From an uncultured Clostridia bacterium (lineage in GTDB: Bacteria; Bacillota; Clostridia; Lachnospirales; Lachnospiraceae), in NCBI GenBank assembly GCA_946186175.1, contig CAMHMG010000001.1:1-34435 (forward strand): a DNA stretch of 34,435 nt. Direction: 5' to 3'. The translations under genes were made by a program, and so were the position numbers. Below, one piece after another: positions 4,752-34,435 of the stretch. Within the stretch, counting starts at the first letter, position 1. The number at the start of each line of letters is the position of its first letter. A model generated the notes under the pieces. It was not told where the DNA came from. It was given only the letters and a program-made list of their open reading frames with translations, and ran no database searches.

Positions 4752-4787
4752 TTGGTATTTCTCCTTTCGTTAATTAAATCTTCGTTA

Positions 4788-5303
4788 CTAATCTTCAATA
4801 TATATTACTTCTTCCGTATCATTATTATCAGCTGATGTATCGCTATTACTTTCCGAAGCCGCCTCTGACGTTTTCTTTTTCGATTCGCTTTTCTTTTCAC
4901 TTTTCTTTTTATTGTCAGACACCTTTGCTTCGGTCTTGGTTTCTGTATCTTTATTTTTTACTGCTGTCTTTGAAGCGTTTCTATTAGTTGCTGTTGTGTT
5001 ATTAACCGATTTCTCGGTATTGATTTCGTTGGGGGAGTTTTCAATTGTTATCTCCGTAGTTATCTCAGTAGTTGTATCACTTTCACTTTTCCCTTGCTCT
5101 TTTTTATCAAGATTTGATCCTTTATCCTCTGTTGTGATCATATTGATAGCAATTCCTTTATTATCAATACTATCAAGAAGTCTCTTTTCTTTATGTATGA
5201 TCCCTTTATTCAGGTTATGATCAGATGTTTTTTTAACATATGTAAAGATAAAGTTAAGGATAGTGTCCACAACAACAAACAAACTACAGCATATACATGC
5301 CAT
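4788..5303 (-). CDS. T/S/K/E-rich low-complexity ORF; probably the -1-frame continuation (extracytoplasmic tail) of the 5210..6307 gene rather than an independent gene
   Basis: There is no SD before its ATG. It overlaps the 3' end of 5210..6307 by 94 nt in the -1 frame, and an A7 run (5228-5234) lies in the overlap. Confidence 0.45.
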   Translation of the reverse strand: MACICCSLFVVVDTILNFIFTYVKKTSDHNLNKGIIHKEKRLLDSIDNKGIAINMITTEDKGSNLDKKEQGKSESDTTTEITTEITIENSPNEINTEKSVNNTTATNRNASKTAVKNKDTETKTEAKVSDNKKKSEKKSESKKKTSEAASESNSDTSADNNDTEEVIYIED

Positions 5304-6307: not shown

Positions 6308-6322
6308 AATCAGATTTACCTA

Positions 6323-11411: not shown

Positions 11412-11654
11412 TATATTTACCTATATATCATTCTTAGCAAACTGTTCTGACGTTTCCTCACACCAATCAGCTATTATTAGGTGTTTGCAAAACTCATAAA
11501 AGTGTGTATAAAAGTTGTATGTTTTGTTGCGCACATAGTATAACCCACAACCATAAAATATGCAACAATTCTTCTTTGTTTCATCTCGTCTCCTGTAATA
11601 AACGTCTGAATCTATGCATATAATTATAATGATATACATTCCGGTTTTCCATCT

Positions 11655-11795
11655 ATGAAAAAAAATATCATTTCTGCTTTTATATTAACTTTCCTTATTT
11701 TCGCTCCGGTCTTATCTGAAAAGCTTGCAGAGGAAGTGTCTTTGATAAAAATGAGATCCTTTGTCATAGTTATTGACGTAGGACATGGAGGGTAA
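11655..11795 (+). pseudogene. 5' fragment (46 codons) of an N-acetylmuramoyl-L-alanine amidase (Amidase_3, CwlD-like) gene, cut off directly after the GHGG motif
   Basis: The translation is MKKNIISAFILTFLIFAPVLSEKLAEEVSLIKMRSFVIVIDVGHGG*. This gives an N-terminal TM/signal segment, then the hallmark V(I/L)D.GHGG start of the Amidase_3 fold, then TAA at 11793-11795. The 3' end of a serine recombinase gene follows 30 nt later. No remainder of the amidase is found on the plus strand in this window. Confidence 0.65.
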
Positions 11796-11824
11796 TGTTA
11801 GTGCAAATTTTGGAATTGAAAGAT

Positions 11825-13438
11825 TTAAGATTGTTCATTACTATACACATTTGAAAACAGATTTTCGTATTCATTTGAAAAGTTATATTTAATCTTAAAT
11901 CGATTGTCTTCGTAAACAGTTATCTCATTAATCATCTCAACAATGATATCTCTGTCAAGCTTGGTTATCTCTTTAAGTTCCAACAACCTCTTAACCCACT
12001 CATTTTCAAAATAATCTGTAGAATTATCTGTTTTCTTTTCTTCAAGTACACTTATCTGCTTTGATAGCAACTCTTCTTTTAAGATGTAGTCCTTGCGATA
12101 GGAAAGAAATTCATCTTTGGTTATCAGATCGTCTTTATAATCCTCATAAATTGACTTCTTAAGGTTTGTTACACGTTCAAGTTCTTTATTAAGTCTGTTG
12201 ATTTCCGCCTCAATAATCTTTGTATTATCGGGCTTTTTCACGGTCTTTGCTTCTACGGATGCTTTTAACAGATCGACATTCTTGATCATAGTATTTAAAT
12301 CATTTAACACAACATCCTCTAATACTTCCATCGGTATTGAATGAGGCGTACAGTATTCTTTTCCGACTCGTTTATACGTACCACAAACCATCCTATATGC
12401 CATTGAGTTGTCCTTGCGACGCCACATATTCTTCATCATATGACGTCCGCAATCACCACACTTGACATATCCTGCAAAAATATTGACGTTATTTGTAAGC
12501 CCTATGTCACGTTTCTTATACTTTAATAAATGTTGCGCTCTTTCCCAAGTCTCCTTATCAATTATAGGCTCATGGGTATTCTCAACTACAATCCACTCAG
12601 TCTTATCCAGCATTTTTTGTTTGCCTCTCATGACCTGATGATGTCGATGTTGTACCATATTGCCAATATACATTTCTTTATTAAGAATTGCGTTGATTGT
12701 GGAGTATGTCCAATATGATGTACTTTTCAAACGGTGTGCATTCTTATAATTAAATCCGTTACTTGCCTTGTACTCAGACGGACATAAAATGCCTTCAGCA
12801 TTTAATATTTTCGCAATACGTTGTTTGCCAAAGCCTTGAACGAACAAGTCAAATATCTTTCTAACAACCGATGCTGCATATTCATCAATGATCAGTTTAT
12901 TCTTATTATCAGGCGCTTTCTTATAACCATAACAGGCAAAAGCACCGATGAATTCACCGGATGTCTGTTTTGCTTTGACAGTCGCTTGTATCTTATTGGA
13001 TATATCCTTGGCATATTGCTCATTGAAAAGGTTTTTGATCGGTAACAACATATCATAAGCCTGCTTCTTGCTATCAATCCCATCCACTATTGATATGAAG
13101 CGCACTCCCTTTTCCGGAAAGTAACGCTCAAGATATCTTCCGGTATCTATGTAATCACGTCCAAATCTCGAAAGATCTTTTACAATAACACAATCAATAT
13201 CACCGTTCTCGATAGCTTCTATCATTCTCTGAAATGCAGGACGATTGAAATTCGTTCCTGTATAACCATCATCAATGTAGAACTCAACCGACTTAATATC
13301 ATCATGACTTGATATATATTCATTTATGAGTTTTCTCTGATTGCCAACACTGTTACTTTCTTCCTTATCACCGTCCTCACAAGATAATCTGATGTATGCT
13401 GCCACGTTAAATAAGATGTTATATTCCATATAATTCAC
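11825..13438 (-). CDS. Large serine recombinase (resolvase catalytic domain + recombinase domain + zinc ribbon + coiled coil)
   Basis: The catalytic domain reads AAYIRLSCED...NQ...DDGYTGTNFNRPAFQRMI...VIVKDLSRFGRDY, and the Cys cluster is CGDCGRHM...CGTYKR...CTPH. The likely true start is the ATG at 13429 (MEYNILF), with AGGTGA 5 nt upstream; the track start is GTG. Confidence 0.92.
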   Translation of the reverse strand: MNYMEYNILFNVAAYIRLSCEDGDKEESNSVGNQRKLINEYISSHDDIKSVEFYIDDGYTGTNFNRPAFQRMIEAIENGDIDCVIVKDLSRFGRDYIDTGRYLERYFPEKGVRFISIVDGIDSKKQAYDMLLPIKNLFNEQYAKDISNKIQATVKAKQTSGEFIGAFACYGYKKAPDNKNKLIIDEYAASVVRKIFDLFVQGFGKQRIAKILNAEGILCPSEYKASNGFNYKNAHRLKSTSYWTYSTINAILNKEMYIGNMVQHRHHQVMRGKQKMLDKTEWIVVENTHEPIIDKETWERAQHLLKYKKRDIGLTNNVNIFAGYVKCGDCGRHMMKNMWRRKDNSMAYRMVCGTYKRVGKEYCTPHSIPMEVLEDVVLNDLNTMIKNVDLLKASVEAKTVKKPDNTKIIEAEINRLNKELERVTNLKKSIYEDYKDDLITKDEFLSYRKDYILKEELLSKQISVLEEKKTDNSTDYFENEWVKRLLELKEITKLDRDIIVEMINEITVYEDNRFKIKYNFSNEYENLFSNVYSNEQS

Positions 13439-13501
13439 CTATTCAACTGCTGTCCCTACATTAAATGTTATAACATAAATGATAACTTTTCTCAATGTAT
13501 T

Positions 13502-13624
13502 TCAAGCAGTCTCCTCTCTCTTATAATCATTGTTATGGCGTTCTATTATTCTGATTATCAACTCTTCAACTGTTACCTTTCCGAGAAATTCGCGCTCTAT
13601 AATATATGTGTTTCCGTTCCCCAT
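13502..13624 (-). CDS. Small 40-aa protein upstream of, and co-oriented with, the recombinase (TnpW-like; candidate directionality/accessory factor)
   Basis: GGAGGG lies 7 nt before the ATG at 13624. The sequence is MGNGNTYIIEREFLGKVTVEELIIRIIERHNNDYKREETA. From memory the TY.I...F....T.EELI.RII pattern resembles transposon-encoded TnpW-family proteins. It is below the track's size cut-off. Confidence 0.4.
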   Translation of the reverse strand: MGNGNTYIIEREFLGKVTVEELIIRIIERHNNDYKREETA

Positions 13625-13742
13625 TACTGTTCCCTCCATCTATCTTCATTTTCGCATTTTCCTGTGTTATAATTCGATTAACTGATATTGCATCTATATG
13701 CTGATTTTAAGTAATAAATGACGAAAACACATTGAGAGCAAA

Positions 13743-16103
13743 TTGAGCACAGATTACGAGGAGAAAATGTCAATGGAACGGCTTGATTTCTGCACCGTCT
13801 TACAGATCATTAAAGACTATTGCAATGAAGAACTGTATGGAACACAGCTTAAACTTGTTGAGAAATTGTTCCACACCTGCGTCTATGGTGAAGATGATGA
13901 TGTTATATACTTTGACGATTCACAAGTGTGCCGATGGTTAAAGGGACAGGTCTGTGTCAGCAGGACAATTACATCCTATTATCTGAAATCAGAAGAACAC
14001 AAAGAACAGTTTGCAAAAGATATTGATGAAAGAATAATCTCTATCATGTATGACAAAGAAATGGCGCTGATAAAACTGCGAGAGCTTCTGTTAAATGATA
14101 CTTCAATATCCGATTCAAAAAAACAGGAGCTTGATTCTTATTACAGTACGGATTCCGATAAAGACATGGCAGCATTTATATCCATTCTCCTTCTGTTTGC
14201 AATGGAACGAAAATTCATACAGCATGATACGGAGAAGAAACTCATAACCTCGGGCGGACTGTCTCCGGTAATATCTGATTACATATTTGAAAATGATCCT
14301 CCAAGTCCATGCAGATATTTCTGCGGACGGGATAACTAGCTTAAAGAACTTCACGAATTACTTACGGATAAAAAGATAATATTTCTGTCAGGAATTGCAG
14401 GAATAGGGAAAAGCGAGCTGGCAAAGGCATACGCCAAAAAATATAAAAAGGGATACACCAACATTTTATATATTACATACAGCGGAAATCTGACAGAGGA
14501 TATTGCAGAACTTGATTTTGCTGATGACCTTCCAAATGATAATGACAGAGAACGTCTCAGAAAACATAACCGCTTCCTGCGTTCATTAAAAGACGACAGC
14601 CTTATTATCATAGACAACTTTGACACTACCGCTGACAGCGACAGTTATCTTTCCATTATTATGAAATACAAATGTCGTATCCTTTTTACAACAAGAAGTC
14701 ATTTTGAGCATTATGACACATTTGAACTTAATGAGATTCAGGATACAAATGAACTGCTTTCTCTTGCTGACAGATTCTACAATGATTTTTCTGCTGACAG
14801 AGATACCGCACTTGAAATAATAGAAACAGTACATCACCACACCTTTGCAGTGGAACTTGCTGCAAGACTATTACAAAAAGGGATATTAACGCAAAAAGAG
14901 CTTTTGAATAAGCTCAAAGAGGAAAATGTCAGACTGTCTTCCGGTGATATGCTCGGAATAAAAAAGGACGGTATATTACGAAAGGATTCCTACTACGGAC
15001 ACATAAGCACTCTTTTTTCTTTATCTGTTCTTGATGAACAGGAAAAATATATAATGCGTTGTATGTGCCTTATACCTCTTGCCGGAATACACGAACTTCT
15101 TTTTGCGGAATGGACAAAGCAGATTGATATGAATACCATAAATACTCTGATAGAACTCGGGCTCATCAAAGAGCAGCCCTTCCGCAAGATCTGCCTCCAT
15201 CCTCTGATACAAGAGATAACGGTTGCCGATCTTAAACCTTCTGTCACCAACTGTAAAGGAATGCTTGAACATATCCATGACAAAATATTCATAATGCATG
15301 GGCTTGATGTACCTTATGCCTATTCTCTTTTTGAAGTTGTTGATAACGTCATAGATATAACCGACAAAGATGATGCTACCTCTTATATTATTTTCATCAG
15401 GGACGCTTTTCCTTATATGGAATCATATAAGTATAAAAGCGGAATGTATAAGATCATCAATGAACTGGATTTCCTTTCTAATGATAAAGAATACAGTCAC
15501 TTAATAGCACCTTCTCTTTTATATGGATACAAGGTCGCAGTAAAGCAGTATTTTGAAAATGACACAGATGGTGCATATAACTATTCAAAAAAGGCGATAC
15601 AAACATTGCCCGACTTAAACAAAGACACTGCCCTGCTATATTCAAATACTTATTGCAATCACGGAGAGCTGGAACATTTAAAGGGCAACTATGATAAAGC
15701 CATGCAATGTGTTGAAAAAGCCCTGTTGATTCTTGATGATTACAATCTGGATTATACAAATTCTCTTATAGTTCAGGCAATCACCTATGCAGTGCTATTA
15801 TCCGACAATGGTGAAAAAACTAAGGCATTGAACATACCTAACAAATGCAAGAAAACAGTGAAAAGGCATAACAGTGAGATATGTCACGACTTTGCCGAAA
15901 TAGAAGAAACAACTGCTTATATATATATTTCTATGGGTGATACCAAAAAAGCCAGAGTACATTATAAAAAGGCAATAAGCATATATAATATAATCTGGGA
16001 GGAACACCCCGAACTTGTAGAAGAAAAAATAAACAGATTAAAACAGCTGATTGTTTCGCAAGTCCCTAACCCTTCACATTTTATTGATGCAATAATTAAA
16101 TAA
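13743..16103 (+). pseudogene. STAND NTPase (unknown ~190-aa N-domain + NB-ARC-like P-loop + TPR array) interrupted by one in-frame TAG at 14337-14339
   Basis: Track ORFs 13743..14339 and 14661..16103 are in the same frame, and no other stop lies between them. The untracked stretch 14340-14660 encodes LKELHELLTDKKIIFLSGIAGIGKSELAKAY (Walker A), LIIIDNFD (Walker B) and ILFTTRS. LHPLIQEI is MHD-like, and the C-terminus is TPR-like. The likely start is the ATG at 13773 (GAGGAG 9 nt upstream). Confidence 0.75.
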
Positions 16104-16110
16104 TTTTGAA

Positions 16111-16149
16111 ATAACCCAAGTCATAATTTGTGAATTGGGTTATTTTTTA
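16111..16149 (+). terminator. Rho-independent terminator after the STAND gene
   Basis: The sequence reads ATAACCCAA-gtcataatttgtgaa-TTGGGTTAT followed by TTTTTTAT. Confidence 0.75.
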
Positions 16150-16358
16150 TTGTCTTTTTATCTGTCTATCAAATTTTAAATCTAATAATTTACCAAAATG
16201 ATTATTCTCTTTTTTCATTTTCAAAATTCTGCAATTTAATCTCAATCTACTATCAATGTGTTTTATTCCTTCATTTGATAAGTTGTATATGTGATCAGTC
16301 GAACAATCACATAACCCACCGATACATTACAAAAAATTTTATTAAGGAGATGATGATT

Positions 16359-16733
16359 ATGCCAAGAAGTAAAAAAACTATTGATGAACGTATCGACATC
16401 AAAGATGACGAAATCCAAAAGCTGTTAGAAAGAGCCAATCAGTTGAAAGCTCAAAAAAGACAGCTTGAGCAGAGAAAGAAAGCCGAAGAACGGAAAGCAA
16501 GAACTCACAGTCTGATTGTCATCGGCGGTGTTGTTGCTTCTGTTCTTAACAGAGATTTTGTAGATGGCGATGATATGCGTCTGATGAACTTCCTAAAGCA
16601 GCAGGAACGCAACGGGAATTATTTTTCCAAGGCTATGAACAAAGGTACGCCGGATACGGCGAAGAAAGAAACTGCAGGCGATATTAAAAGCAGTGATGTG
16701 CCAAGCGAGCAGACCGGTAATGACGGGGAGTGA
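16359..16733 (+). CDS. DUF3847-family protein (mobilisation-module accessory protein of Clostridial ICE/IMEs)
   Basis: AAGGAG lies 9 nt before the ATG at 16359 (MPRSKKTIDE). A coiled-coil KAQKRQLEQRKKAEERKARTHSLIVIGG follows, then LMNFLKQQERNGNYF. From memory, RKARTHRLI is characteristic of the family. The track's longer 16275 start has no RBS. Confidence 0.7.
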   Translation: MPRSKKTIDERIDIKDDEIQKLLERANQLKAQKRQLEQRKKAEERKARTHSLIVIGGVVASVLNRDFVDGDDMRLMNFLKQQERNGNYFSKAMNKGTPDTAKKETAGDIKSSDVPSEQTGNDGE

Positions 16734-17451
16734 TTTTATCATTCCCTTCACAAAGGGAAGGCGCACTTATATATGGGCGGAGCCCATATATACCACTCCG
16801 CTTCGCTCCGTTAGTGCGCTCTTCGAGGAGCGGAACAACAGTCGCTCCGTAGGCGGTCGTGCCGTCATAGGTGCCGCCCTCTGCGGCGAGGGTAAGCGTT
16901 GCAGGCGTTGTATCATAGCTGTCCGGACAACCCTCCGCGCAGGTCGCCGTGATGGTATCGCCCGCATCATTTACGGAATATGTAAAACTGTGGGTGTGAG
17001 GAGTTCCGTAATATACGACAATCGTACTGATAGTAGCATAATTATTACCATCGATGCCGATTATATTAACCGATGTTGCATTGATATCGGTTACTGTCAT
17101 CCTACTACCGTCAAAACTTACTGTACCTGCTGATGCGCTAAGAGCGGAAGATCCCCATCTGGTTGGGTTATATTTTTTTGCATCGGTGAGCACTATCCTT
17201 GTAATGGGGTCATCGCTTGAAGATATGGACACACTCTTACTACTATTGACAAAAAAGGCGCTATAATTGTAAGAACCCGCCGAAACGGTTACCCCGTTTT
17301 GTGTCCCCGTCGCTGTGAAGGTTTCACTTTGCTCAGCTGCATACGCCGTCAGGCTCATGCCGGGAACAATACCTGTCATGGTGCTAAACACCATAACAAG
17401 TGCCAGCAGACAGCTTATCACCTTTCTTCCTGATTTCTTTTTTTGTTTCAT
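16684..17451 (-). pseudogene. 5' remnant of a secreted surface protein gene (signal peptide + about 200 aa), truncated at about 16840
   Basis: The signal peptide is MKQKKKSGRKVISCLLALVMVFSTMTGIVPGMSLTAYA. The sequence is sensible up to ...ATLTLAAEGGTYDGTTAYGATV. After that comes an implausible tail (PLLEERTNGAKRSGIYGLRPYISAPSLCEG...) that runs through the palindrome and overlaps the 3' end of the DUF3847 gene. The 16801-16920 segment is about 62% G+C by hand count, in an AT-rich window. Confidence 0.55.
16768..16792. repeat. Perfect 11-bp inverted repeat TATATATGGGC-gga-GCCCATATATA at the junction of two convergent, truncated units
   Basis: Read directly from the sequence. There is no U-tract on either strand, so it is not a classical terminator. 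Confidence 0.8.
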
Positions 17452-17545
17452 AAGTTCATCACTCTCGTATTATATAGTTTTTTGCTTATCATATTCGAAA
17501 TCAGACATCCTGCTAATTACCAGATATGAAAAAATATAATATATA

Positions 17546-17600
17546 ATAAAAAGCACCCGAAAGAACTACGGTATCGTACCGTAAGCCCTTATCGGGTGCT
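17546..17600 (-). terminator. Strong Rho-independent terminator (about 22-bp interrupted hairpin + U-tract)
   Basis: The minus strand reads AGCACCCGA-U-AAGGGC-U-UACGGUA-cga-UACCGUA-GUUCUU-UCGGGUGCU followed by UUUUAUUAU. Confidence 0.8.
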
Positions 17601-17618
17601 TATTATTTATGTGCAATT

Positions 17619-17640
17619 CAAAAAGAGCGCAGAACGCCCT
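17619..17640 (-). terminator. Small Rho-independent terminator
   Basis: The minus strand reads AGGGCG-uucug-CGCUCU followed by UUUUG. Confidence 0.5.
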
Positions 17641-17715
17641 ATGTATGTATGTAGAGATTTTATTTCATACCGGTCAAGCCCCATTCAAAACATTATTTAT
17701 TATCACTTGAATATC

Positions 17716-17750
17716 ATTATAACAAACGGTTGCCACAAATCTGCCACAAA
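17716..17750 (-). promoter_or_regulatory. Promoter-like module A: TTTGTGGCA-ga-TTTGTGGCA, 9-nt spacer, TATAAT
   Basis: On the minus strand the 9-mers are at 17750-17742 and 17739-17731 (11-bp period), and the -10 TATAAT is at 17721-17716. It lies 3' of the response-regulator gene. Confidence 0.5.
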
Positions 17751-17769
17751 CAAGGGGTATTTCACAATG

Positions 17770-18546
17770 TCATAACACCGCCCATGTATATTGTCTCATA
17801 TACCCATCAAGTTCTTCCCTGCTATATTGTTTTCTTCCTTCAAGATAATCATACAGGTCACAGCTTATCTTCTCTTTATTGAGACTGTAACATCCTTTAT
17901 TGTCATTGATTATTATATCTTCAAGTCCGTAAGCACGAAATGCAGTCCTTATGTCGCTTATGATATTTCTTATATACCGGCGTTTCTTTTCCGTATCCTC
18001 TTCCTCGGACCATAGAAGATAACGAAGTTCTTCCTCGGAAACAAGAGCGCCTCTTTTATCGATCAGATATGCAAGCACCTCTTTACACTGTGACCTCTTG
18101 AAATCAATCGGTATTCCGCCGTACAACACCTCAAATTGTCCGAAACACTTTACCTTCAATTCCGATATTGGAAATCTCAGATTATCAACGGCTTTCTGCA
18201 TTTTCTTCTCATTTACGGGCTTCATAATAAACCCGCTGACATACATTTCAAGAATATCAACCGCGTACTTATCGTGTCCGGTAATAAATATTATATTGGT
18301 GCGGGGACTGATACTTTGAATACTCTTTGCAACCTCAAGTCCGTTTTTATACGGCATTTCAATATCAAGAAATGCTATCTGTATGCCTTCGGAAGTTTCA
18401 AACGCCATCTCCTGTTGAATTATTTTTATAACCTCATCCGAGTTTTGTGCAAGAAAGAATTCCGTGTTATCTCCAAGTACCTTCTTTGCTGTCCTGTGTA
18501 TATCTTTTAATATAAAAGGCTCGTCATCTGCTATAAGACATTTCAT
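17770..18546 (-). CDS. Response regulator: CheY-like receiver + SARP/OmpR-type winged-helix DNA-binding domain
   Basis: The receiver motifs are canonical: LIADDE, AFLDIEMP, IIFITGH and IMKP. The C-terminus reads CFGQFEVLYGGIPIDFKRSQCKEVLAYLIDKRGALVSEEELRYLLW. Confidence 0.85.
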   Translation of the reverse strand: MKCLIADDEPFILKDIHRTAKKVLGDNTEFFLAQNSDEVIKIIQQEMAFETSEGIQIAFLDIEMPYKNGLEVAKSIQSISPRTNIIFITGHDKYAVDILEMYVSGFIMKPVNEKKMQKAVDNLRFPISELKVKCFGQFEVLYGGIPIDFKRSQCKEVLAYLIDKRGALVSEEELRYLLWSEEEDTEKKRRYIRNIISDIRTAFRAYGLEDIIINDNKGCYSLNKEKISCDLYDYLEGRKQYSREELDGYMRQYTWAVL

Positions 18547-18554
18547 GTTATCTC

Positions 18555-19835
18555 TTATCTCCCATCATGTTTACTTCTTGTATCAGGTATCTCTAATGTA
18601 ACGACAGTTCCTTTCCCTGCTTCACTGTTTACTGTTACCTCTCCACCTAATATCCGCTCAAATCTGTCACGGACATTCTTAATTCCCACATGCTCTACTC
18701 CGTCAAATTCAACATTATCCACATCAAAGCCTTTGCCGTCGTCAATTATCTTAATAATTATGTTTCCGGCATTTTCTTCTGTAGATATGGTAATCGTACC
18801 CTTTTCACCCTTCATGCTTATTCCGTATCGGACTGCATTTTCCACGATAGTCTGCACCGACAGGGGCGGAACACTGAAATCCGTAACAGTAAAATTCCTG
18901 ACAAGCTCTATCCTTCCCGGAAATCTCATCCTTTCAAGATACAGATAATTTTCAACCGATTCCATCTCCTTATCAAATGATACAAGACGCATATCTTCAA
19001 TCTGCTTTATATTCTCCTGAAGATATCCCGAAAAATGATCTATCATTTCCACCGCTTTATCCGCATCCTCATAACAAAGGCTTCTTATGACAGCAAGATT
19101 ACTGTTGATAAAATGCGGTCTTATCTGCGCCATCAAAAGATTGCATCTGTTATGCTCTAATGCAAGACTGCTCTCATGTAACTGCTCCTGCACATCAACA
19201 TACTGGATTGCAGCCAGATAGAAATAATATGTGAATAACTCGACCGCAATGACAGCAGGCAGATAACCGTTCGGCATATAATTCAACGTAAGGAGCTGTG
19301 CAAGGAAAATGGTCAGCATCATAAAGACAACTATGATACCCTTTGAGCGGTTCCTTCCCCTTAACAGTCTGATTGAATATACAGCAATTATTATTACATA
19401 AAAATCTTCAACCACAAATGCAAGGTGATTAAGCGGTCCGCCATGATAGGAATAATTATCTTCATAAGTATATACCAGTGCACTTCCGGATAAGTCTATT
19501 ACATTTACTATCATATTGAATATCTGCGGTATCGCGATAAGGAACTTATGCTTTATATCGCAGATAGTATAAAGAAAAATAAGGGCAACCGCCGGATAAA
19601 GCGTGTATATAAGCATTGCTTTATAAAACAGCAGACGATAATCAAGGTTATGAGTATCTATCCAGACCTCCGAAAACTCAAGCAACGAGATCACAAGCGC
19701 CATAAGAGACAATATATACAGATACCCTGTCTTCTCTATCTTTGCATTCCTGTTCACCATCAATATCACAATGACAGCCGCTACAAGAAGAACTGTCGGG
19801 TAATTATTGACAGTATATTCAGTAAAAAAATTCAT
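18555..19835 (-). CDS. Sensor histidine kinase, LytS/YehU-type (multi-TM sensor + His_kinase + HATPase_c)
   Basis: There are about six N-terminal TM helices. The H-box reads AQIRPHFINSNLAVI, and the ATPase blocks read VENAVRYG and IIDDGKGF...GIKNVRDR...GKGT. Confidence 0.88.
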   Translation of the reverse strand: MNFFTEYTVNNYPTVLLVAAVIVILMVNRNAKIEKTGYLYILSLMALVISLLEFSEVWIDTHNLDYRLLFYKAMLIYTLYPAVALIFLYTICDIKHKFLIAIPQIFNMIVNVIDLSGSALVYTYEDNYSYHGGPLNHLAFVVEDFYVIIIAVYSIRLLRGRNRSKGIIVVFMMLTIFLAQLLTLNYMPNGYLPAVIAVELFTYYFYLAAIQYVDVQEQLHESSLALEHNRCNLLMAQIRPHFINSNLAVIRSLCYEDADKAVEMIDHFSGYLQENIKQIEDMRLVSFDKEMESVENYLYLERMRFPGRIELVRNFTVTDFSVPPLSVQTIVENAVRYGISMKGEKGTITISTEENAGNIIIKIIDDGKGFDVDNVEFDGVEHVGIKNVRDRFERILGGEVTVNSEAGKGTVVTLEIPDTRSKHDGR

Positions 19836-19973
19836 AGATTCATCAACTCCTGTATATCACGGAAACCAATCTATAATGTTACTTATATCTGATTTATTAT
19901 ATCATGAACTTCATAATTGCGACATCCCTGTCGCAAAAAAGCACTCGTTCATGCTATATATACTTCCATGTAT

Positions 19974-20008
19974 AATATATCACAAGTGTGTAACAAATCT
20001 GCCACAAA
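19974..20008 (-). promoter_or_regulatory. Promoter-like module B: TTTGTGGCA-ga-TTTGTTACA, 9-nt spacer, TATATT; upstream of the HK-RR operon
   Basis: On the minus strand the 9-mers are at 20008-20000 and 19997-19989, and the -10 TATATT is at 19979-19974. It lies about 140 nt before the HK ATG at 19835. Confidence 0.5.
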
Positions 20009-20010
20009 TT

Positions 20011-20066
20011 ATAAAAAGAAATAATAAGGACTTAATCATGTACTGATACAATGATCAAGTCCTTAT
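20011..20066 (-). terminator. Rho-independent terminator (16-bp stem, one mismatch) immediately upstream of module B
   Basis: The minus strand reads ATAAGGACTTGATCAT-tgtatcagtac-ATGATTAAGTCCTTAT followed by TATTTCTTTTTAT. Confidence 0.65.
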
Positions 20067-20112
20067 CCCTTGGCTAATTAGTTATCAACGAAAGGGCGAT
20101 GTCTGTACCTCC

Positions 20113-21536
20113 TGAGTTTTGAAGTGAACAAATTAAAATAATCCAGCTAACCCTTGTGGTTGCTGGTATTTTTTGTCAATATTTTGTATTTTGGTATAGC
20201 GTAGTTTAGCGAAGTGTGTTATAATATATTTATCCAGCGAGAAAAGGGTGTTATTATTGGCACAAAGAAAACGAAGAAAAACAAGGACTGTTGTTGACTC
20301 TGCTGCAAGAAATGCTGCTGTATTGTCAGATGGGTGCAATCCGGAGTTTGTTAAGGGTGCTGAGTTTGATGGGATTTTTGAAATCCCCATAATCTAGAAA
20401 CCGAAAAAATACCAAATCCCAAAACAGCTTGTTCCTTTCATATGCGCCCTATCATAAACAGGATAAAAAAGGATTTCTCAGATACCAGGATCATCTTTGT
20501 CGCAGACAGGGGACTCAACACATCAGATAACATTTACTATCTTAATGGTGATAATAAATGTGTCAATAACCAGCGTGACGGATATGTATATGGTCGGTCC
20601 GTAAGAGGTGCAGATGCCGAGTTTAAGAAATGGGTGCTTTCCGGAAAATATATCACCGAGAAGATAACTGATGATGACGGCAGTGAGGTAACATTTACGC
20701 ATAAGAGCCGCATTTATCCTAAAGAACTGCGTGTAAATGTTTCAAAGCCCGGACAGACGAAAAAGTCAAAAAAGACCGTAAAAGTCGATCAGAAGCAGAT
20801 GGTATACTACTCGGAAAAATATGCAAAGAAACAGCGTGCAGACCGTGAAGTCATGATACAGCGTGCTAAGGATCTGATAAACCATCCAAAGAAATATGAC
20901 AAAGTAACAGCTGCAGGTTCTGCCTCTTATGTCCTGGGCATTTCTTTTAGCAAAGAAACGGGAGAGATCGTTGACAAAAAGGCTCTGGCTCTTAATCAGG
21001 AAAAGATAGATGAAGAGCAGAAATATGACGGCTACTACTCAATCGTGACAAGTGAGCTTGAAATGACCGATCATGAGATGCGTGATGTTTACAGAGGGCT
21101 TGCCAGAATAGAGGATACATTTAAGATATCGAAGTCCGAGTTCGATTCAAGACCTGTTTTTGTAAGGACAAATGAACACATAGATGCGCACTTTGTAACA
21201 TGTTTTACCGCACTTGTTCTTATAAGACTTTTACAGGCAAAACTTGATAACATTTTTCCTGTAGGACGGATAATTAATGCCCTCAAAAGTTACAACTGTA
21301 TTCCGATAGATGCAAACACTTACCAGTTTACTTATTATGACGAGATACTTGAAAAGATAAGCAAAGTATTTGACATGGACCTTGATAATAAATACCGTAC
21401 ACGCCAGCAGATACAGCGTTTTCTTCGGTATTGAAAATTTTTTGAGATATTTGAAAAAAATCCCAGTACGCCATACAGACAAATCGCTGTAAACCTTTAT
21501 TTATAAGGGCTACTGCGATTTTGCTTCAAAACTTGA
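20113..21536 (+). mobile_element. Decayed IS (IS1634/IS4-type) remnant with candidate terminal inverted repeats
   Basis: A 10-nt inverted match AGTTTTGAAG occurs at 20115-20124 and 21533-21524. A short N-terminal-like ORF lies at 20257-20397 (TTG start, LAQRKRRKTRTVVD...FDGIFEIPII*), followed out of frame by the transposase C-terminal part. Boundaries are tentative. Confidence 0.4.
20442..21434 (+). pseudogene. IS1634-family (IS4-like DDE) transposase, C-terminal two-thirds only
   Basis: It carries IIFVADRGLNTSDN (second catalytic D region). It also carries KYDGYYSIVTSE...YRGLARIEDTFKISKSEFDSRPVFVRTNEHIDAHFVTCFTALVLIRLL (Y-R-E region). The N-terminal DNA-binding part and the first D region are missing. 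Confidence 0.7.
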
Positions 21537-21537
21537 G

Positions 21538-21572
21538 ATTATTACAAACAGGTGTAACAAATCTGCCACAAA
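21538..21572 (-). promoter_or_regulatory. Promoter-like module C: TTTGTGGCA-ga-TTTGTTACA, 9-nt spacer, AATAAT; now abuts the IS remnant
   Basis: On the minus strand the 9-mers are at 21572-21564 and 21561-21553, and the -10-like AATAAT is at 21543-21538. Flanks are near-identical to module A (acaaac.gg ... caagg). Confidence 0.45.
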
Positions 21573-21589
21573 CAAGGAAGGGAGAGTTG

Positions 21590-23227
21590 TTAAGCTTTTT
21601 CTATACTGCAGCTGTGATGCTTATAGGCTGTATCAGTACTGCTCACGTCCTTCTCATAATTGATGCTTATAAGCAACAGATTATCTTTGTAATGCATAAG
21701 CTTCTGCGGATAATTCTTACTCCTTATCTGGTCTGCCGCAGTCTCTAATGACTTATCATACTTAAGTTCTATCAATAACGCCGGTTTATCGGGATGCTTT
21801 GGCGACGGCAGATATACAAGATCAACATAGCCCTTTCCTGAGTCTAACTCCTGTATTGTAGTATAATACTTCTGTCCCGCATAATATGCCATCTGCACGG
21901 CATAAGAAAGTGCCGCCTCGCTGTTGTAGGTCTTATTCTCCGCAGTGTCATGGAACCATTCAAGAAGCTCGGCAACCTTATCTTCCTTACCTTCCCATGT
22001 CGCCTCCAAAAGCTTCTGTGATTTCTTAAATGAAGTAAATGTATCTATCCATTCCTCTGATTCCGTTGATGTCTTGAATTCATCAAGAAGTTCATTGTTG
22101 GGAATGAACACTTCCTTTGTATCTGCATCATAGCCCAGATATCCGAGATGTATAAGCATTACAAGGACATCATTACTTCCGCCAAATGATGTCATATCAT
22201 TCTGATATTTGTTAATGTTGACCTTAAGTCTTCCGCCATCCATAAGGAGTGCCACCGAATCTTTAAGACCATCATAATTCATTCTGATATATTCAGCCAG
22301 TGTCTCATAGTTTTCCGTCTTGTTCCAGTAATTCTGTATTATTCCGGTTGACAGAGCTTCTACCACCGACAACGGGCTGTAAATGGATAACGACTTTCCT
22401 TCATATTCTCCCATTCTGTATTCATTACGCATCTCAACAGGTATATCAGTATTAACGATATATCCATTATACCAGCTTGCTATATCCTCATAGTGCATAT
22501 TGTATTCATTACATTTTTCCTTGACCTCTTCTTCGGTAAAACCGGTATACTGTGCAAACTGCATCGGGGTTATGATTGAAAACTCACGGAACATATTAAG
22601 AGCCGAATGCTGTCCGTACTTTTTAATCGGCAATATTCCCGTCATATAGGCTAGTGCAACATACTCCTGATCTTTAAGCCAGTCACGAAGAAAATCAAGA
22701 TACACCTTCTGCCCCTTCATATCTTCTTTACATACACGGAACACAACATCCCATTCATCTATAATAATGACGAACTGTCTTCCCGTCTCTTCATACACAT
22801 CTGACATTGAAAGTATAAGATTGTCCGTATCGTAATAATCCACATCAGGATACTGCTTTTTCAGATCACGCACAAGAAGCTCTGTCATTTTGCCAAGTGC
22901 AGCTTTAACATCTCCATCCTCCTTGATAAAGTCCGTCATCACTACCCTGACCACATCAAAATGGTTAATGTACTTATCCCAGTTCTCATGCCCTGCTATC
23001 AGCCTGTCAGCAAACAGTTCCCTGCTTTCCCCTTTGCCATAGTATGCCGCAAGCATATTGGCGGCTATAGTCTTTCCAAAACGCCGCGGACGGGAAACAC
23101 ATACATACTTCTGCTCGGTCTTAAGAATAGTATTAAGATATATTATCGATTCGGTCTTGTCCACATATATCTCTGAATTAAGTGTTTCTTCAAACTTCAC
23201 ATTTCCCGGATTAAGATATCTGCCCAT
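21590..23227 (-). CDS. AAA-ATPase_like (PF09820-type) + PD-(D/E)XK nuclease (PDDEXK_9-type) protein
   Basis: From the internal ATG at 23227 (RBS GGGGTG) the sequence reads MGRYLNPGNVKFEETLNSEIYVDKTESIIYL...YVCVSRPRRFGKTIAANMLAAYY. The C-terminus reads SGKGYVDLVYLP...ALLIELKYDKS...QIRSKNY. The track's 47-codon N-terminal extension to 23368 has no RBS and overlaps a terminator. Confidence 0.85.
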   Translation of the reverse strand: MGRYLNPGNVKFEETLNSEIYVDKTESIIYLNTILKTEQKYVCVSRPRRFGKTIAANMLAAYYGKGESRELFADRLIAGHENWDKYINHFDVVRVVMTDFIKEDGDVKAALGKMTELLVRDLKKQYPDVDYYDTDNLILSMSDVYEETGRQFVIIIDEWDVVFRVCKEDMKGQKVYLDFLRDWLKDQEYVALAYMTGILPIKKYGQHSALNMFREFSIITPMQFAQYTGFTEEEVKEKCNEYNMHYEDIASWYNGYIVNTDIPVEMRNEYRMGEYEGKSLSIYSPLSVVEALSTGIIQNYWNKTENYETLAEYIRMNYDGLKDSVALLMDGGRLKVNINKYQNDMTSFGGSNDVLVMLIHLGYLGYDADTKEVFIPNNELLDEFKTSTESEEWIDTFTSFKKSQKLLEATWEGKEDKVAELLEWFHDTAENKTYNSEAALSYAVQMAYYAGQKYYTTIQELDSGKGYVDLVYLPSPKHPDKPALLIELKYDKSLETAADQIRSKNYPQKLMHYKDNLLLISINYEKDVSSTDTAYKHHSCSIEKA

Positions 23228-23344
23228 ATGCTCACCCCTTCGTATTATCTGTTCATTTATCCGTAGTATAGCATATATAAGCACTTTTATCCACTGAAAA
23301 AAAGATTCCCCGTATTTCACAAATATTATTTCAATTCTGTTAAA

Positions 23345-23412
23345 AATGAAAAAACAATTCTCCGGCACCCTGCAAACGTTAATACAAACATTTTAGCAAG
23401 ATACCGGAGAAT
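23345..23412 (-). terminator. Putative terminator of the giant gene (9-bp stem ATTCTCCGG/CCGGAGAAT, large loop, U-tract)
   Basis: The minus strand reads ATTCTCCGG-(38-nt loop)-CCGGAGAAT followed by TGTTTTTTCATTTTT. Confidence 0.45.
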
Positions 23413-23459
23413 CTTTTATGAGGATATCATAACAAACATATAATTACTTTTAATTGTTT

Positions 23460-26400
23460 TTAATTACCTTTGATATCTTTAACATTTCCCTGTACAGGTT
23501 TAACACTGATAAGCTGTGCGTTATTACCTCCCGTACCATCAGAATTTGTTGTATTAGAGAAATCTTCAGTTGCTTTGCCTTCAAACACAAGCACGTTTGT
23601 TCCGACACCGCCCTTATATGTTACATTCTCAACATGCAAATAAGTCTTGATCTTATCAAGGCTTACATCGATTGTAGGATCACCGCTTCCGGAGGTTCCC
23701 GTTGCGCTGTTGATAAGCTCATCATAGATTACTGCAAATCTTACGGTATCCCCCTTCTTGTAATCGGAGGTAGCCATCGGCGCAATACCGACCTGTTCCG
23801 GTGCACGGGTGTCATTTACATTGATTGCAAATCTATTCTTATCGATAGTTAATCTATAATACAAAGCACCAGTGTTGTGTGCTTTTCCGGCATAACTAAC
23901 TGTATCATTATTGAGCAGCAGATCCCATTCCACTTCCTGTTCCGAATTATAATAAGCAAATTCCATTTCACCTGTGTTTTTATTCTTTCTTTTGCCAATA
24001 TGTACATTGCCCGAATTATTCTTGTAACTATCATAGTTAAAAACAGTATCTCCAAGTTTATATTCCAATTTATCCATACGCGCAGTATCTTCTTCCTTTA
24101 CAAGCTTACCCAAAATACTTTCAGCCTTTTTAGCCTTAATACTCACTTTGAATTTTGGCTTTGAACCATTTGCGGTCTTAAGATAATATAATATATCCTT
24201 ATCAATAATGCCACTAATACTGAAAGTACCTGTTGTTTCTGTATCATCAATAGTCACATCAGCTTCATAACCTTTTACCCTTTCACCATATATGGCATCT
24301 TCTGTAAGTATCTTAGCACTTGGCATAGTCATGGTACGGTCTACGGTACTTGTTGTGATAGTTCCCGTCACACCTTTGCTGTCTGTGGCATTCTCAATCT
24401 TATAAAGTTCTGCCGTATAGTAACGTGTGGACGTTCCTGTCAGATTATAAAGGTGGGCATAGTCGCCTAAGCCGTCTGCGGTACCTGACTCACTTCCCAT
24501 ATATCTGGTTGACACATTCTCATTCTTAACTTTGAAAGTCGCAGACCAGTTACCGTTAGTATCTGTCTTGTCGCCCGCCTGTTGCTGATTATTCTCCATA
24601 GAGTAACATTCCGTCTTAGAGAATAACGCATAAGTATTCTGTCCGCCCACATGCTTGAAGTTAATAGGGGAAGCCGTTCCTCCTATAGCTGTACCGTTGA
24701 TAGTCCTGTAGTATATCCTCTGCTGTGCATCCGCTACGGCTACTCCTGTAGGCATGGTTCTTGTGATCTTGAAGGTGGTATAATTGTTATCCGTCTTGCC
24801 TGAACTGTCAGCCACCGGTGATGCAGATGTCGAGCTTACAAGCGATATGCTGAAGCTTCCGGGACTAGTCCATTTCGCCTTTAATGTCTTATTGCCCGTT
24901 TCACCCTTAAGCTTAAGACTTGTGACCTTATTATCCTTCTCGTCATACCATCCCTCGAACTGACATCCTGCCTTGATCCCTGTCGGACTGCTAAGTCCCT
25001 TGTCAGGACTGTTGATAGTATACTTCGTAGGATTATTGCTGCTGTTCGCTGTAGCTCCTGCATCCCATGAAATATAGCTTATCGTGTATTCTATAGGTTT
25101 CCATACCGCATAGAGGTTCACTATGCCGTCCTCAAGACTGTCAAGAGAGTCAGCGTAGTCTATAGTTGCTCCGTCAGCAAACTTCTTTTCCGTTGCATTC
25201 TGGGTAAGAGCCCATCCTTCAAATGTATATCCGTTTCTCGAAAGTCCGAGCGCCGTCGCTGTCTTGATGGCCTTGCTTTCTCCAAATACCATTTCCTCAC
25301 TGTACGGTTCAGCGGAATGCGAGGCAGTACCCTCATTGAAGTAGAAATTAGCCTTGTAATGCTTAGCCGTCCATTTTCCATAGACGGTTATGTTGTGGGC
25401 CACAGGCTCTATCTTCTCAATAAAGCTGTCCTCATCAAATGTGTCAGATGTATACCAGCCATCAAAGTCATATCCGTCTCTGTCCTTAGTCGGAGGCACG
25501 AGTATTATCGAATTATCACCTATTTGCCATGTTACCTCAGCAACCTCTTCATCCTGTTTGTTGCCGACAGTAAGACTATATGTTACCTTTTCCCATTGCG
25601 ACTGAAGAACAAGATTGTTACCCGGCATTGTTTCCGGAAGATTCTCTGTCACCTCATTATTACCCATGTTCTTCCAGCCCGTGATCGCATAACCGGTATA
25701 TACCGGCAATGTAATATCAGTTATATTGTCACCTGCCTTGTATTCTCTGTCAAAATACAGTCCGCTGTATCCGTAGAGCTGGAGTCTGTATGTATTCTCC
25801 TTCCAGTTTGCAGTGAGAGTGATCTCTTCTTTGCTGTCAGCGCTTATCACATATGGAGTAACAGGATCATTGTCGCTGCCGTCAGTCCATCCAATGAAGG
25901 TATAACCCTCTTTGACAGGCGCATAGATATATATTTCATCTGTACCGCCTATTCTGTATTTATCCGGATTAGAACCGTTGTCTGCTCCTTCTAAGCCCTC
26001 ATAGCTTATGAGCATCTCATCGAATTTCCAGCGTGCATAAAGTATATGGTCTTTTCCCTGACTTACAACTGTATCAGCCTCTACCTTATTGCCTTCCTCT
26101 GCCTTATCATACCAGCCGGTAAATTCAGCCGAAAGACCATTTACTTGAGGTACCGGAAGCTGCCCATACTCTTCGCCGTATGTCACGGTCTTCTCTAACT
26201 CATCATCATCGACCACTCCGACACCTGCATCAAATGTTACCTTGCATGTTACAGGTGACCACACTGCCGTAAATGATAAGTCTTCACAGCCCATAACAGC
26301 AGGGACTTCCTTATCCCAGACAACTGTATGATTGTCCTTAACAGGTACCGGCGCTACGATAGCCGCTCCATAATAGGTCGTGCCCTCGGTATAGCTGCCT

Positions 26401-33371: not shown

Positions 33372-33398
33372 TACTCTCCTTTCAACTTATTTTCGTTC

Positions 33399-34435
33399 TC
33401 AGTAAACCGTTATCTTAATCTTCTTCTTGATACCGTTTCTGGCCATTGCGTAAATGTAACATTTACCCTTCTTAACACCTTTGACCTTGCCTGACGAAGA
33501 AACAGTTGCGATCTTAGTATTAGTAGACCAATATTTCAGATATGCTTTCTTTCCGGTCTTCTTAACAGACTTTTTGTTCCTGCTTACATACACATAAGCA
33601 CCGATTATCTTTGTACTCTTGACTTTTATCTTAAGATTTTTCTTGGCTTTGACGCTTGTCGCATTATAACCGTCTTTCTTTGCGCCCGCATATCTTAATC
33701 CATAACTCTTAGCCAGAATATACTTCTTACCGTCTATAAGCTTATACGCCTTAACATATGCCTTATACACCTTGCTCTCATCACTGATATTAAAGGTGTA
33801 TGTACATCCATCGTTAACGGTTACTGCTTTACCGTATTTTGATCCGAGAATACCGGTGTAGACAAGGTATCCGTCAGCTCCATTGACCTCACCCCATTTA
33901 AATGTAAGCTCACCGTTTTCTGCGCTTAATAATAACCCTTCTCTTAATTTCAACAGAGCTTTATTCTTCTCGGCCTTTGTCGGCTCAGTAGGACTCTCAG
34001 CCTTAGTACCGTATGCAAATGTATATATAGGATTTTTGAATGAAGCAGCTACTGCGTAATTAGTGTCGCTAACGCCTTCTATTCTGGCAACATATACATC
34101 TCCGGCTGTCATGTCACTAACTGCAATCGCTTTAGTATAAGTCTTATCTGACTTACTATATACATTCATCAGAACTTCCGGTGACTCTCCCTTTAATACG
34201 CCCTCTGTAAATGCAGCTTTTGGCATGTTCGTATTCTCATCAAAAGACCATTCTACCGAATTAAGTTCGCAAGGTTTGATAATTGCCTTTAATTCGAGTT
34301 TTCTCGCACTGTCTGCGAAATAATAGTTATCAGTTATTGTTTTATTATTTCCAGACTTAAGTTTAGAAATTGTAACGATCACTTTTTTATCAGCAGCTTT
34401 TCCGTCAGCATTTGTCAAAACATCCTTTGCCGAAG
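33399..34435 (-). CDS. Secreted Big_2/FN3-like surface protein, 5'-partial (N-terminus beyond window end)
   Basis: The track start at 34418 is a TTG, and the frame stays open upstream to the window edge (..SAKDV-LTNADGK). A C-terminal Big_2-like block (YLKYWSTNTKIATVSSSGKVKGVKKGKCYIYAMA) is present, and an FN3-like LTFKWGEVNGADGYLVY. The stop lies 27 nt before the giant gene start, so co-transcription is likely. Confidence 0.8.
   Translation of the reverse strand, partial: SAKDVLTNADGKAADKKVIVTISKLKSGNNKTITDNYYFADSARKLELKAIIKPCELNSVEWSFDENTNMPKAAFTEGVLKGESPEVLMNVYSKSDKTYTKAIAVSDMTAGDVYVARIEGVSDTNYAVAASFKNPIYTFAYGTKAESPTEPTKAEKNKALLKLREGLLLSAENGELTFKWGEVNGADGYLVYTGILGSKYGKAVTVNDGCTYTFNISDESKVYKAYVKAYKLIDGKKYILAKSYGLRYAGAKKDGYNATSVKAKKNLKIKVKSTKIIGAYVYVSRNKKSVKKTGKKAYLKYWSTNTKIATVSSSGKVKGVKKGKCYIYAMARNGIKKKIKITVY

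Follow-up and report, generated by a model that had tools for sequence, protein, structure and literature searches.

A Large Serine Recombinase Island Splits a cwlD-Type Amidase Gene at Its GHGG Motif in a Lachnospiraceae Genome and Could Restore It by Precise Excision

Introduction

How does an amidase gene come to end after 46 codons, directly behind its first catalytic motif and beside a large serine recombinase (LSR) gene, and could it be made whole again? This question is raised by a 34,435-nt stretch of DNA of an uncultured Clostridia bacterium of the family Lachnospiraceae (assembly GCA_946186175.1, contig CAMHMG010000001.1, positions 1 to 34,435), hereafter the window. Sporulation genes known to be rebuilt by excision of an intervening element are sigK, spsM, spoVFB, spoVR, gerE and yabG, mostly in Bacilli and a few clostridial pathogens, and loss of cwlD in Bacillus subtilis blocks germination. 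An earlier note, made from the sequence of the window alone, read the locus as a germination amidase gene cut by a recombinase element exactly at GHGG and possibly reassembled during development. The present analysis established in silico that an island is integrated in a cwlD-type gene and that recombination between its two attachment sites, attL and attR, would restore an intact CwlD-like protein of 224 aa; whether such recombination belongs to sporulation is weighed below.

Materials and Methods

The window is the entire contig C1 of the source genome (G000), a bin of 347 contigs that is 87% complete with 4% contamination. Relatives of the recombinase were sampled in 301 genomes across the family, and splits of a second amidase gene (CwlC-like) were counted in 44 species representatives of the genus. 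Evidence on junctions in metagenomes came from Logan assembler contigs of 12 runs, in which rare forms are dropped by the assembler.

Results

The Two Halves of the cwlD-Type Gene

The 5′ fragment (11655..11795, plus strand) comprises 46 codons, MKKNIISAFILTFLIFAPVLSEKLAEEVSLIKMRSFVIVIDVGHGG, followed by a TAA supplied by the element, and matches residues 1–48 of the joined protein described below (C1:11655-11798). It begins with a membrane anchor or signal segment of basic and hydrophobic character, followed by the beta-1 strand and GHGG, the first Amidase_3 motif; the open reading frame (ORF) that the earlier note had described, with its signal or transmembrane segment, motif and stop, was thus confirmed. 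The convergent 3′ end of the recombinase gene lies just downstream, as had been noted, at a measured distance of 29 nt. The partner end of the element, which had been expected outside the window, was located on another contig of G000, C146. When the entire genome was searched with Pfam Amidase_3, four matches were obtained, two of which begin at model position 7, the HGG of the first motif, and the missing 3′ half (...HGGSDPGKV) is present on C146 next to the partner attachment site. Its frame, ...LHVPHGGSDPGKVSTSGIEEKNVNLAIARYL..., is open to its stop without any internal stop; the half has neither a start codon nor a promoter. The search and the orthologue comparison found no second cwlD-like copy in G000.

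When the flanks are joined, a protein of 224 aa is obtained with the hydrophobic N-terminus MKKNIISAFILTFLIFAPVLS and a single Amidase_3 domain at residues 38–218 (model positions 1–172 of 174). Its match to NCBIfam TIGR02883 (spore_cwlD) reached 212.6 bits over positions 2–189 of 189, the next family scoring 83 bits. Because 212.6 bits lies under the curated cut-off of 221.55, the product is a near miss and the gene is labelled CwlD-type rather than a proven equivalog. The matching gene was present in 40 of 41 related genomes; in the closest congeners (G024, G012 and G022), the proteins aligned with the joined protein over residues 1–223 at 75–77% identity. Across the join, the intact orthologues read VIDVGHGGSDPGKVS, and all conform to (V/I)IDVGHGG(S/N)DPGKVS. 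The joined flanks matched G024 in a single blastn high-scoring segment pair that passes through the junction, and the neighbouring Sua5-type gene was also conserved. Judged by the full-length Amidase_3 match and the orthologue alignment obtained once the halves are joined, ORF 11655..11795 is evidently not a chance ORF. Two readings that would have made the split trivial, namely, simple gene decay with no 3′ fragment anywhere in the genome and an intact short ORF of the same length in related genomes, are contradicted by the 3′ half on C146 and by the full-length gene in relatives.

Attachment Sites and the Point of Strand Exchange

The attL site (11755..11813) consists of a host arm with the cwlD codons ...VIVIDVG, a crossover dinucleotide CA (11784..11785, the first two bases of the GHGG His codon) and an element arm, TGGAGGGTAATGTTA-GTGCAAATTTTGG. 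The attL in the window reads GGA-CATGGAGG-GTAATGTTAGTGCAAATTTTGG and the attR on C146 reads CCAATATTTGCACAATCTACACGTACCT-CATGGAGG-AAGCGAC; CATGGAGG is common to both, and at the ends of the element stands an inverted repeat, CCAAwATTTGCAC, whose partner, CCAATATTTGCAC, was located at the C146 end. These junction sequences fit insertion by a serine integrase. In all attP sites reconstructed for related elements (see below), the geometry TTGCRY-N15-CA-N15-RYGCAA was found, with CA at the centre of symmetry, and in the element of genome G136, (A)CA are the only bases that attL and attR share. Since CA is central in attP and only (A)CA is common in G136, we infer that strand exchange takes place at the CA of the GHGG His codon, at 11784-11785 in the window; the assembly graphs of metagenomes branch at 11791.

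The recombinase gene of the window points outward to the 5′ stub, and the polarity of the att arms relative to the amidase gene is unchanged. Most relatives have the small ORF first, then the LSR, attR and the 3′ half, and in the type found in Sporofaciens the order is 5′ stub, attL, small ORF and LSR. A palindromic crossover (AT of CATG) was considered to explain the reversed recombinase and was rejected because of the symmetry around CA and the sharing of only (A)CA in G136. On the simplest reading, the core dinucleotide of the window element would be inverted relative to its LSR gene (TG, not CA, on the coding strand); as the CA of the His codon is fixed, such an element would have to integrate the other way round.

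The base after CATGGAGG (window 11792 / C146:4812, L005:1536) is variable: G in attL, A in occupied attR (G000 and metagenome X7) and C in every contig with an empty site (X5, X6 and X7), while a variant element in X9 sits on the C allele. Apart from this base, the X7 flanks are identical over ~490 nt upstream and ~460 nt downstream of it. It may mark a lineage or represent an attB variant that influences integration.

Occupied and Empty Sites in Metagenomes

At least 19 gut runs, among them runs from cattle and sheep, contained the attL form, and X4 contained the occupied form alone. Because such contigs recur in cattle and sheep gut runs of many separate studies, the split lineage is a successful one. 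In independent assemblies, a 12,953-nt contig (X4) spans attL and a 902-nt contig (X7) spans attR. The assembly graph of X7 splits exactly at 11791, where an upstream depth of 31.7 divides into 16.3 for the occupied branch and 14.3 for an empty-site unitig of 61 nt, TGTCATAGTTATTGACGTAGGA-CATGGAGG-CAGCGACCCC. Contigs with empty sites accounted for 17–72% of local depth in X5, X6 and X7. The split of cwlD is therefore real and polymorphic in nature.

A bin as fragmented as the source genome, with some contamination, a gap between contigs C142 and C146 and an element that does not close, could in principle have brought together a stub and a C146 fragment from different strains or organisms. Such an assembly or binning artefact is scarcely credible: the contigs of independent studies span both attachment sites, the depths in X7 add up (occupied plus empty branches equal the upstream depth), the att arms give the expected inverted repeat, and the flanks, once joined, run collinear to those of a congener, the Sua5-type neighbour included.

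A Second Split Amidase Gene in the Same Genome

A second LSR element (E2) was found in G000, in a gene of 280 aa with Amidase_3 and SPOR domains and no signal peptide, split at the same His codon. The 5′ stub of this CwlC-like gene is MANPTIIIDAGHG (C317:276-320), and the 3′ half, ...VPHGGFDNGA..., lies at C89:10309-11124 on the minus strand. The E2 recombinase, reconstructed across the C322/C89 overlap (C322:3-1496 and C89:11352-11498), is 66% identical to that of the window. Intact CwlC-like orthologues in congeners are 76–78% identical over residues 1–280. In B. subtilis, CwlC has the same Amidase_3 and SPOR architecture and is a sigma-K-dependent amidase of mother-cell lysis. Two Amidase_3 paralogues of G000 are uninterrupted (IDPGHQSRANGG and IDPGHCDVHPGA); the absence of GHGGxDxG from both suffices as an explanation of why they were spared.

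A Recombinase Clade at the GHGG Codon

Among the sampled genomes, every LSR at least 61% identical to that of the window adjoins a 3′ fragment of an Amidase_3 gene that starts at HGG; these LSRs occur in seven other Lachnospiraceae genera and in E2. Altogether, related LSRs occupy the GHGG His codon in at least 16 further genomes (seven genera, three named records and six congeners), and 7 of the 44 species representatives of the genus have their CwlC-like gene interrupted at HGG. The truncated fragments of CwlD-like type scored 161–178 bits against TIGR02883. On the contig of G020, neither a recombinase nor a 5′ half was found within 17 kb of the junction. Complete copies were delimited in G136 (25 kb) and G193 (24 kb), each between the two halves of a CwlC-like gene. 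The LSRs of both (relatives at 66–68% identity) are located in conjugative transposons of the Tn916 family, in which they replace Int/Xis; the conjugation module comprises an AAA_10 ATPase, NlpC/P60, ArdA, an FtsK-like protein, Rep_trans and a sigma-like protein. The host arms differ at synonymous positions (CAYGGNGGNnnnGAYCCNGG). Despite 99% identity to each other, the LSRs of G136 and G077 have different targets, a CwlC-like and a CwlD-like gene, respectively. As 99% identical LSRs occupy two paralogues, specificity is for the sequence coding for the motif and not for one gene; by sequence, the clade uses as its attB the stretch that encodes the amidase motif (I/V)D(A/V)GHGGxDxG. A sporulation gene as the target is therefore no evidence of a developmental role in itself, because the conserved GHGGxDxG alone can account for the choice.

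The closest named relatives of the window recombinase are from Sporofaciens and Bariatricus. Three named records with LSRs 57–61% identical to it likewise lie inside amidase genes. In Sporofaciens sp. SGI.106 (L017, NZ_JBNPMZ010000008.1, around 75.9–80.0 kb; locus 2820-6876), a mini-element of 4,056 bp splits a CwlD-like gene and contains a small ORF, an intact LSR of 540 aa and an ORF of 706 aa. The 5′ stub, small ORF and LSR all run in the same direction, so that the cwlD promoter could drive the excision module. In a Bariatricus metagenome-assembled genome (MAG) and a Lachnospiraceae MAG, an amidase 5′ stub lies upstream of the small ORF and LSR, and all three again share one direction. Other target sites had been considered for these three and were rejected, as amidase 5′ halves are present upstream, though nothing downstream, of the LSRs.

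Two side observations concern these records. The 706-aa ORF of Sporofaciens begins, by eye, with a rubredoxin-like CxxC...CxxC motif. In Bariatricus (L018, JBJENH010000015.1, ~2800-2990), the stub MPYSIMLDAGHGG continues in frame and without a stop into the small ORF (...CRLRKKEPEQYTVEREFLSK...), whose protein would be translated from the start codon of the amidase gene itself.

The clade can also be read as a family of ordinary mobile elements for which GHGGxDxG is just an available landing site: cwlD and the CwlC-like gene would be knocked out, and rare excision would serve transfer. This reading is a real possibility, held at less than an even chance, as is its corollary that carriers persist by vegetative spread or through a cargo benefit exceeding the cost. 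It agrees with the Tn916-family relatives, with the motif specificity of nearly identical LSRs, with the absence of the motif sequence from the spared paralogues, with the coexistence of occupied and empty alleles at comparable depth (the empty one with a different synonymous base) and with the restriction of the cwlD insertion, within the genus, to one species. On the other side, the transfer-gene-free mini-element of Sporofaciens keeps an intact recombinase, and both candidate mother-cell amidase genes are split in a genome that retains spoIVA and a pdaA-like gene (SpoIVA, 593 bits, above the cut-off; PdaA-like protein, 263 bits with a cut-off of 298). By homology, G000 is accordingly counted as a spore former and the split gene is presumed to act in sporulation. 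For a gut anaerobe spreading through spores, a block of germination such as that caused by cwlD loss in B. subtilis would come at a high cost.

Selection on the Split Halves

No internal stops and no frameshifts were found in any amidase fragment examined, which does not favour knocked-out genes. One element, at one position of the CwlC-like gene, is shared by the congeners G348 and G007. Their element sides align collinearly for 5.2 kb (98.0–98.5% identity) and their host sides are 97.8% identical, with a synonymous divergence (dS) of 0.064 for the recombinase and 0.084–0.092 for host genes; this fits an insertion inherited from a common ancestor. In the split 3′ half, 14 synonymous changes and 1 non-synonymous change were counted (ratio of non-synonymous to synonymous divergence, dN/dS, 0.02; P = 9e-9 under neutrality), and the LSR was similarly constrained (dN/dS 0.04). 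A dead fragment should drift towards the neutral expectation of 1, yet dN/dS is 0.02; the split CwlC-like gene therefore appears to be still in use, which speaks against mere disruption by a mobile element. The pair G020/G021 (dN/dS 0.07) was not counted, since one ORF on the element side had a dS of 0.015 versus 0.148 for the amidase 3′ half; with the element side far less diverged than the host, the element probably moved after the species split.

It was also observed that in G348:C26 (L060) and G007:C75 (L061), the recombinase ends with TGA three codons before the His codon, in the frame of the amidase 3′ half (...RCLHIRN*YAGHGGYDNG), so that its 3′ end overlaps the att arm.

Recombinase, Small ORF and Transcription

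The LSR gene of the window (11825..13438, minus strand, convergent with the cwlD stub) encodes an intact protein of 537 aa with the catalytic motif YIRLS and the domains PF00239 Resolvase (12–161), PF07508 Recombinase (188–306) and PF13408 Zn_ribbon_recom (320–382). In NCBIfam, it came closest to the CcrB, CcrC and XisF families, each time under the cut-off, and a search of IMG/VR found no close relatives. Directly upstream lies an ORF of 45 aa (13502..13639, minus strand) with the motif YxxEREFLGKxxxEELxxRIxxxH. No match to it was found in Pfam; its position is conserved beside nearly every recombinase of the family, and it is a candidate LSR partner or directionality factor.

An extended −10 promoter, TGtTATAAC (13475-13467, minus strand), precedes the recombinase; together with the approximate 5′ end of the transcript (13456-13461), it defines the feature 13456..13475. 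In four gut metatranscriptomes, a single contig spans the LSR, attL and the downstream Sua5-type gene, and the RNA contigs stop at 13396-13461. Depth was zero over 13484-13651, leaving the small ORF uncovered, and over the right end of the element (L005:900-1514). A scan of 11400-13800 for sigma-70 promoters and terminators gave 14 sites versus 12.2 expected from shuffled sequence, no better than chance.

Upstream of the cwlD start by ~30 nt, a −10-like element, CATATAATT (11617..11625, plus strand), was noted in a weak, by-eye comparison with six intact orthologues. It is kept as gCATAnnnTA in most congeners and resembles the −10 boxes of mother-cell sigma-E/K; it also contains TATAAT. By-eye matches to the sigma-E/K/G consensus near cwlD and the small ORF were too weak and were not used.

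Several further observations concern this region. A partly palindromic motif, ~RCRTATWGGATAAGC-N6-9-(T)GCGTATG/ATATGC, recurs throughout the recombinase family 60–90 nt ahead of the small ORF (loci L022-L026, L028 and L036, and ~13655-13700 in the window) and may be an operator or promoter of the module of small ORF and LSR. The metatranscriptome contigs (window 11300-13461, minus strand) run antisense to the cwlD stub and ~1.7 kb beyond, and the same strand carries the host Sua5-type and RpiB-like genes, to whose transcription the element promoter may contribute. The RNA contigs of X1 and X3 contain a snap-back joint between 13396 and 13456.

The zero depth over the right end bears on whether the element could repair the gene without excision, by providing a start and a hydrophobic N-terminus in frame from its right end and so a working CwlD variant. 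There is a TTG at C146:4726, with AGGA 7 nt before it, that would give M-PFLVLFFLCFSSIHNHQYLHNLHVP-HGGSDPGK..., and no stop interrupts this frame in the 28 codons that precede the junction; a diverged variant of the end in X4 and X9 is also open and hydrophobic over its 10 visible codons, and in the G136 element, a TTG stands in frame seven codons ahead of HGG. We nevertheless regard this as very improbable: the end is silent in the metatranscriptomes, the basic residues of a signal peptide are absent, the hydrophobic run extends over only ~11 residues, the buried beta-1 strand VIVIDVG would turn into a polar one (LHNLHVP) dictated by the att arm, and in other elements of the clade, stops stand directly before the junction (TAA TAA in E2 and TAA in G193).

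Extent and Cargo of the Islands

The island of the window is at least 35 kb long, running from C1:11786 onward to C142 and, across a gap, to C146:1-4803. C1 and C142 are continuous through a 55-nt contig overlap, and the gap lies between C142 and C146. The cargo in the window (13743..34435; Pfam and ORF calls) continues on C142 and ends on C146. It includes two adjacent ORFs, the second with TPR repeats; a DUF3847 ORF; a 255-aa ORF without a family match; a pair of response regulator and His_kinase; a DDE transposase; and an AAA-ATPase_like/PDDEXK_9 protein. A giant surface protein of 3303 aa with Listeria-Bacteroides repeats and Big_2 domains is encoded at 23460-33371 (minus strand), and a second one of ~2,650 aa at 33399-34435 (minus strand), continuing across the contig join on C142:1-6917. 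At the far end of the element are a TOTE-type AEP primase and helicase with a weak PLD-like protein (984 aa; C146:930-3887, minus strand) and a short open frame with a P-loop (GINGAGKT) of AAA ATPase type (C146:4122-4439, minus strand). No phage structural or conjugation genes were found in the visible ~35 kb, the C142–C146 gap excepted. By predicted content, the island thus carries defence-type genes, giant surface proteins and a two-component system. E2 is at least 16.5 kb long and carries, as cargo of defence type, an AAA_21 and RloB pair (C317:648-2557), along with an SNF2-like helicase, a peptide deformylase (C317:2690-3103) and, as read by eye, apparently part of a type I restriction subunit.

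Discussion

The explanation that we favour, with somewhat better than even confidence, is a reversible split, in which the gene is rebuilt by excision of the island. Integration at the CA of the His codon leaves a 46-codon 5′ stub and a promoterless, startless 3′ half; the LSR, probably with the 45-aa protein as its directionality factor, would excise the island, upon which cwlD would be expressed. Excision would probably take place in the mother cell, a terminally differentiating cell, as it does for skin, SPbeta and gin; the spore genome would retain the island. The same scheme would hold for E2 in the CwlC-like gene of G000. CwlD may act on the cortex delta-lactam and in germination, and the CwlC-like Amidase_3-SPOR protein may have a part in the lysis of the mother cell. 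That excision is specific to sporulation is plausible. Of the reading in the earlier note, the split at GHGG, the 3′ half beside a matching att site, the full-length gene in relatives and the sporulation genes of the host are supported; as to developmental excision, no excision junction was seen and the LSR promoter is of sigma-A type.

Several points weigh against excision in development. Products of excision can be predicted exactly: attB would be ...GGACATGGAGG of the window joined to AAGCGACCCC (GGA allele), and attP would be the C146 end of the element joined to 11792 onward. Neither an attP circle nor an excision-type attB was found in the Logan contigs, from which a rare circle would escape assembly, and raw-read runs of the same studies (X20-X23) contained no reads of the locus; in the contigs of JGI metagenomes, the predicted attP and the left end of the element were both missing, which makes the negative for attP uninformative. 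All empty-site contigs have GGC and the occupied attR of G000 and X7 has GGA, so that the empty sites are most simply co-resident strains free of the element and not excision products. The LSR appears to be expressed outside sporulation from a sigma-A-like promoter, as the gut RNA contigs end just downstream of TGtTATAAC, and no recognisable sigma-E/K promoter was found for the small ORF or the LSR; a housekeeping-type promoter is what an ordinary mobile element would have. A transcribed LSR is compatible with the SPbeta scheme and equally with such ordinary behaviour. The relatives of the LSR are integrases of conjugative transposons similar to Tn916 and Tn5397, whose excision serves transfer. 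The near miss at the TIGR02883 cut-off belongs here as well. The cwlD gene is intact in 23 of 24 sampled congeners, with no match in one 87%-complete genome, so that the insertion in cwlD is young and has no selection signal of its own. Finally, the dN/dS value comes from the CwlC-like gene of relatives and assumes inheritance, two acquisitions of diverged copies being possible.

A wider form of the proposal, that of gene rebuilding by excision, is put forward tentatively, with belief well short of even. A clade of LSRs in gut Lachnospiraceae, each with a ~40-aa partner, would have specialised on the GHGG His codon of cwlD and CwlC-like genes; carriers would keep both genes split and rebuild each in every sporulating mother cell, and in the Sporofaciens type, the promoter of the target would time the excision module.

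If excision is confirmed, a germination amidase and probably the CwlC-like amidase too would be added to the list of rebuilt genes, and the phenomenon would be common in abundant gut commensals, given the frequency of the split CwlC-like gene in the genus. It would also be an example of a recombinase with the coding sequence of a catalytic motif, shared by paralogues, as its attB, which allows a single integrase to invade many species and, within one genome, more than one gene. With its cargo of defence genes and giant surface proteins, the GHGG site would also be a route of cargo exchange in rumen and gut communities. The 4-kb version in Sporofaciens is a possible direct experimental handle, if the strain is in culture.

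Comparison with Known Systems

In size and architecture (N-terminal anchor and Amidase_3), the joined protein corresponds to CwlD of B. subtilis and Clostridioides difficile (TIGR02883), with which it shares a full-length match to the model and a PdaA-like partner in the genome; it differs in falling just under the cut-off, and its role in muramic delta-lactam formation is presumed by homology. In design, the G136 and G193 relatives resemble Tn5397 of C. difficile, in which the LSR TndX is located on a Tn916-like backbone and alone mediates insertion and excision at a dinucleotide crossover. The window element differs from Tn5397 in having no conjugation module in its visible ~35 kb and in its target site.

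Gene-intervening elements of sporulation genes include skin, SPbeta, vfbin, vrin, gin and yin (PMC4191935, PMC5595907, PMC5025042, PMC10747680). The window element shares with them the interruption of the coding sequence of a sporulation gene, its own recombinase beside the att site and the restoration of the frame by precise recombination. The literature search found no paper naming cwlD or cwlC as the target of such an element. Notable features are an attB within a catalytic-motif coding sequence, two paralogous targets occupied in one genome, and carriers ranging from 4-kb mini-elements and conjugative transposons to islands of at least 35 kb. Skin in sigK depends on SpoIVCA in B. subtilis and on CD1231 with the directionality factor CD1234 in C. 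difficile (PMC5025042); in SPbeta, inserted in spsM, SprA is constitutive and the small directionality factor SprB sets the timing (PMC4191935, PMC5499854). Like these, the window element is an LSR element inside a gene expected to be expressed in the mother cell, and a constitutive integrase with a regulated factor, as in SPbeta, would fit the transcribed LSR and the RNA-silent small ORF. In contrast, skin and SPbeta are prophages or remnants with one fixed target gene, whereas here a motif attB occurs in two paralogues, both occupied.

The window element is in anatomy closest to gin, a non-viral element that interrupts gerE of Bacillus cereus ATCC 10987 and encodes the recombinase GirC and GirX and whose excision in sporulation was shown experimentally (PMC5595907). 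Both are non-phage islands of tens of kilobases in a sporulation coding sequence with a serine recombinase and a small accessory factor, and in both, precise excision rebuilds, or here would rebuild, the gene. They differ in that gin has three recombinases versus one here, in that its excision is experimental and that of the window element is inferred, and in that here catalytic-motif codons of cwlD or a cwlC-like gene are hit, by a recombinase clade that also resides in conjugative transposons.

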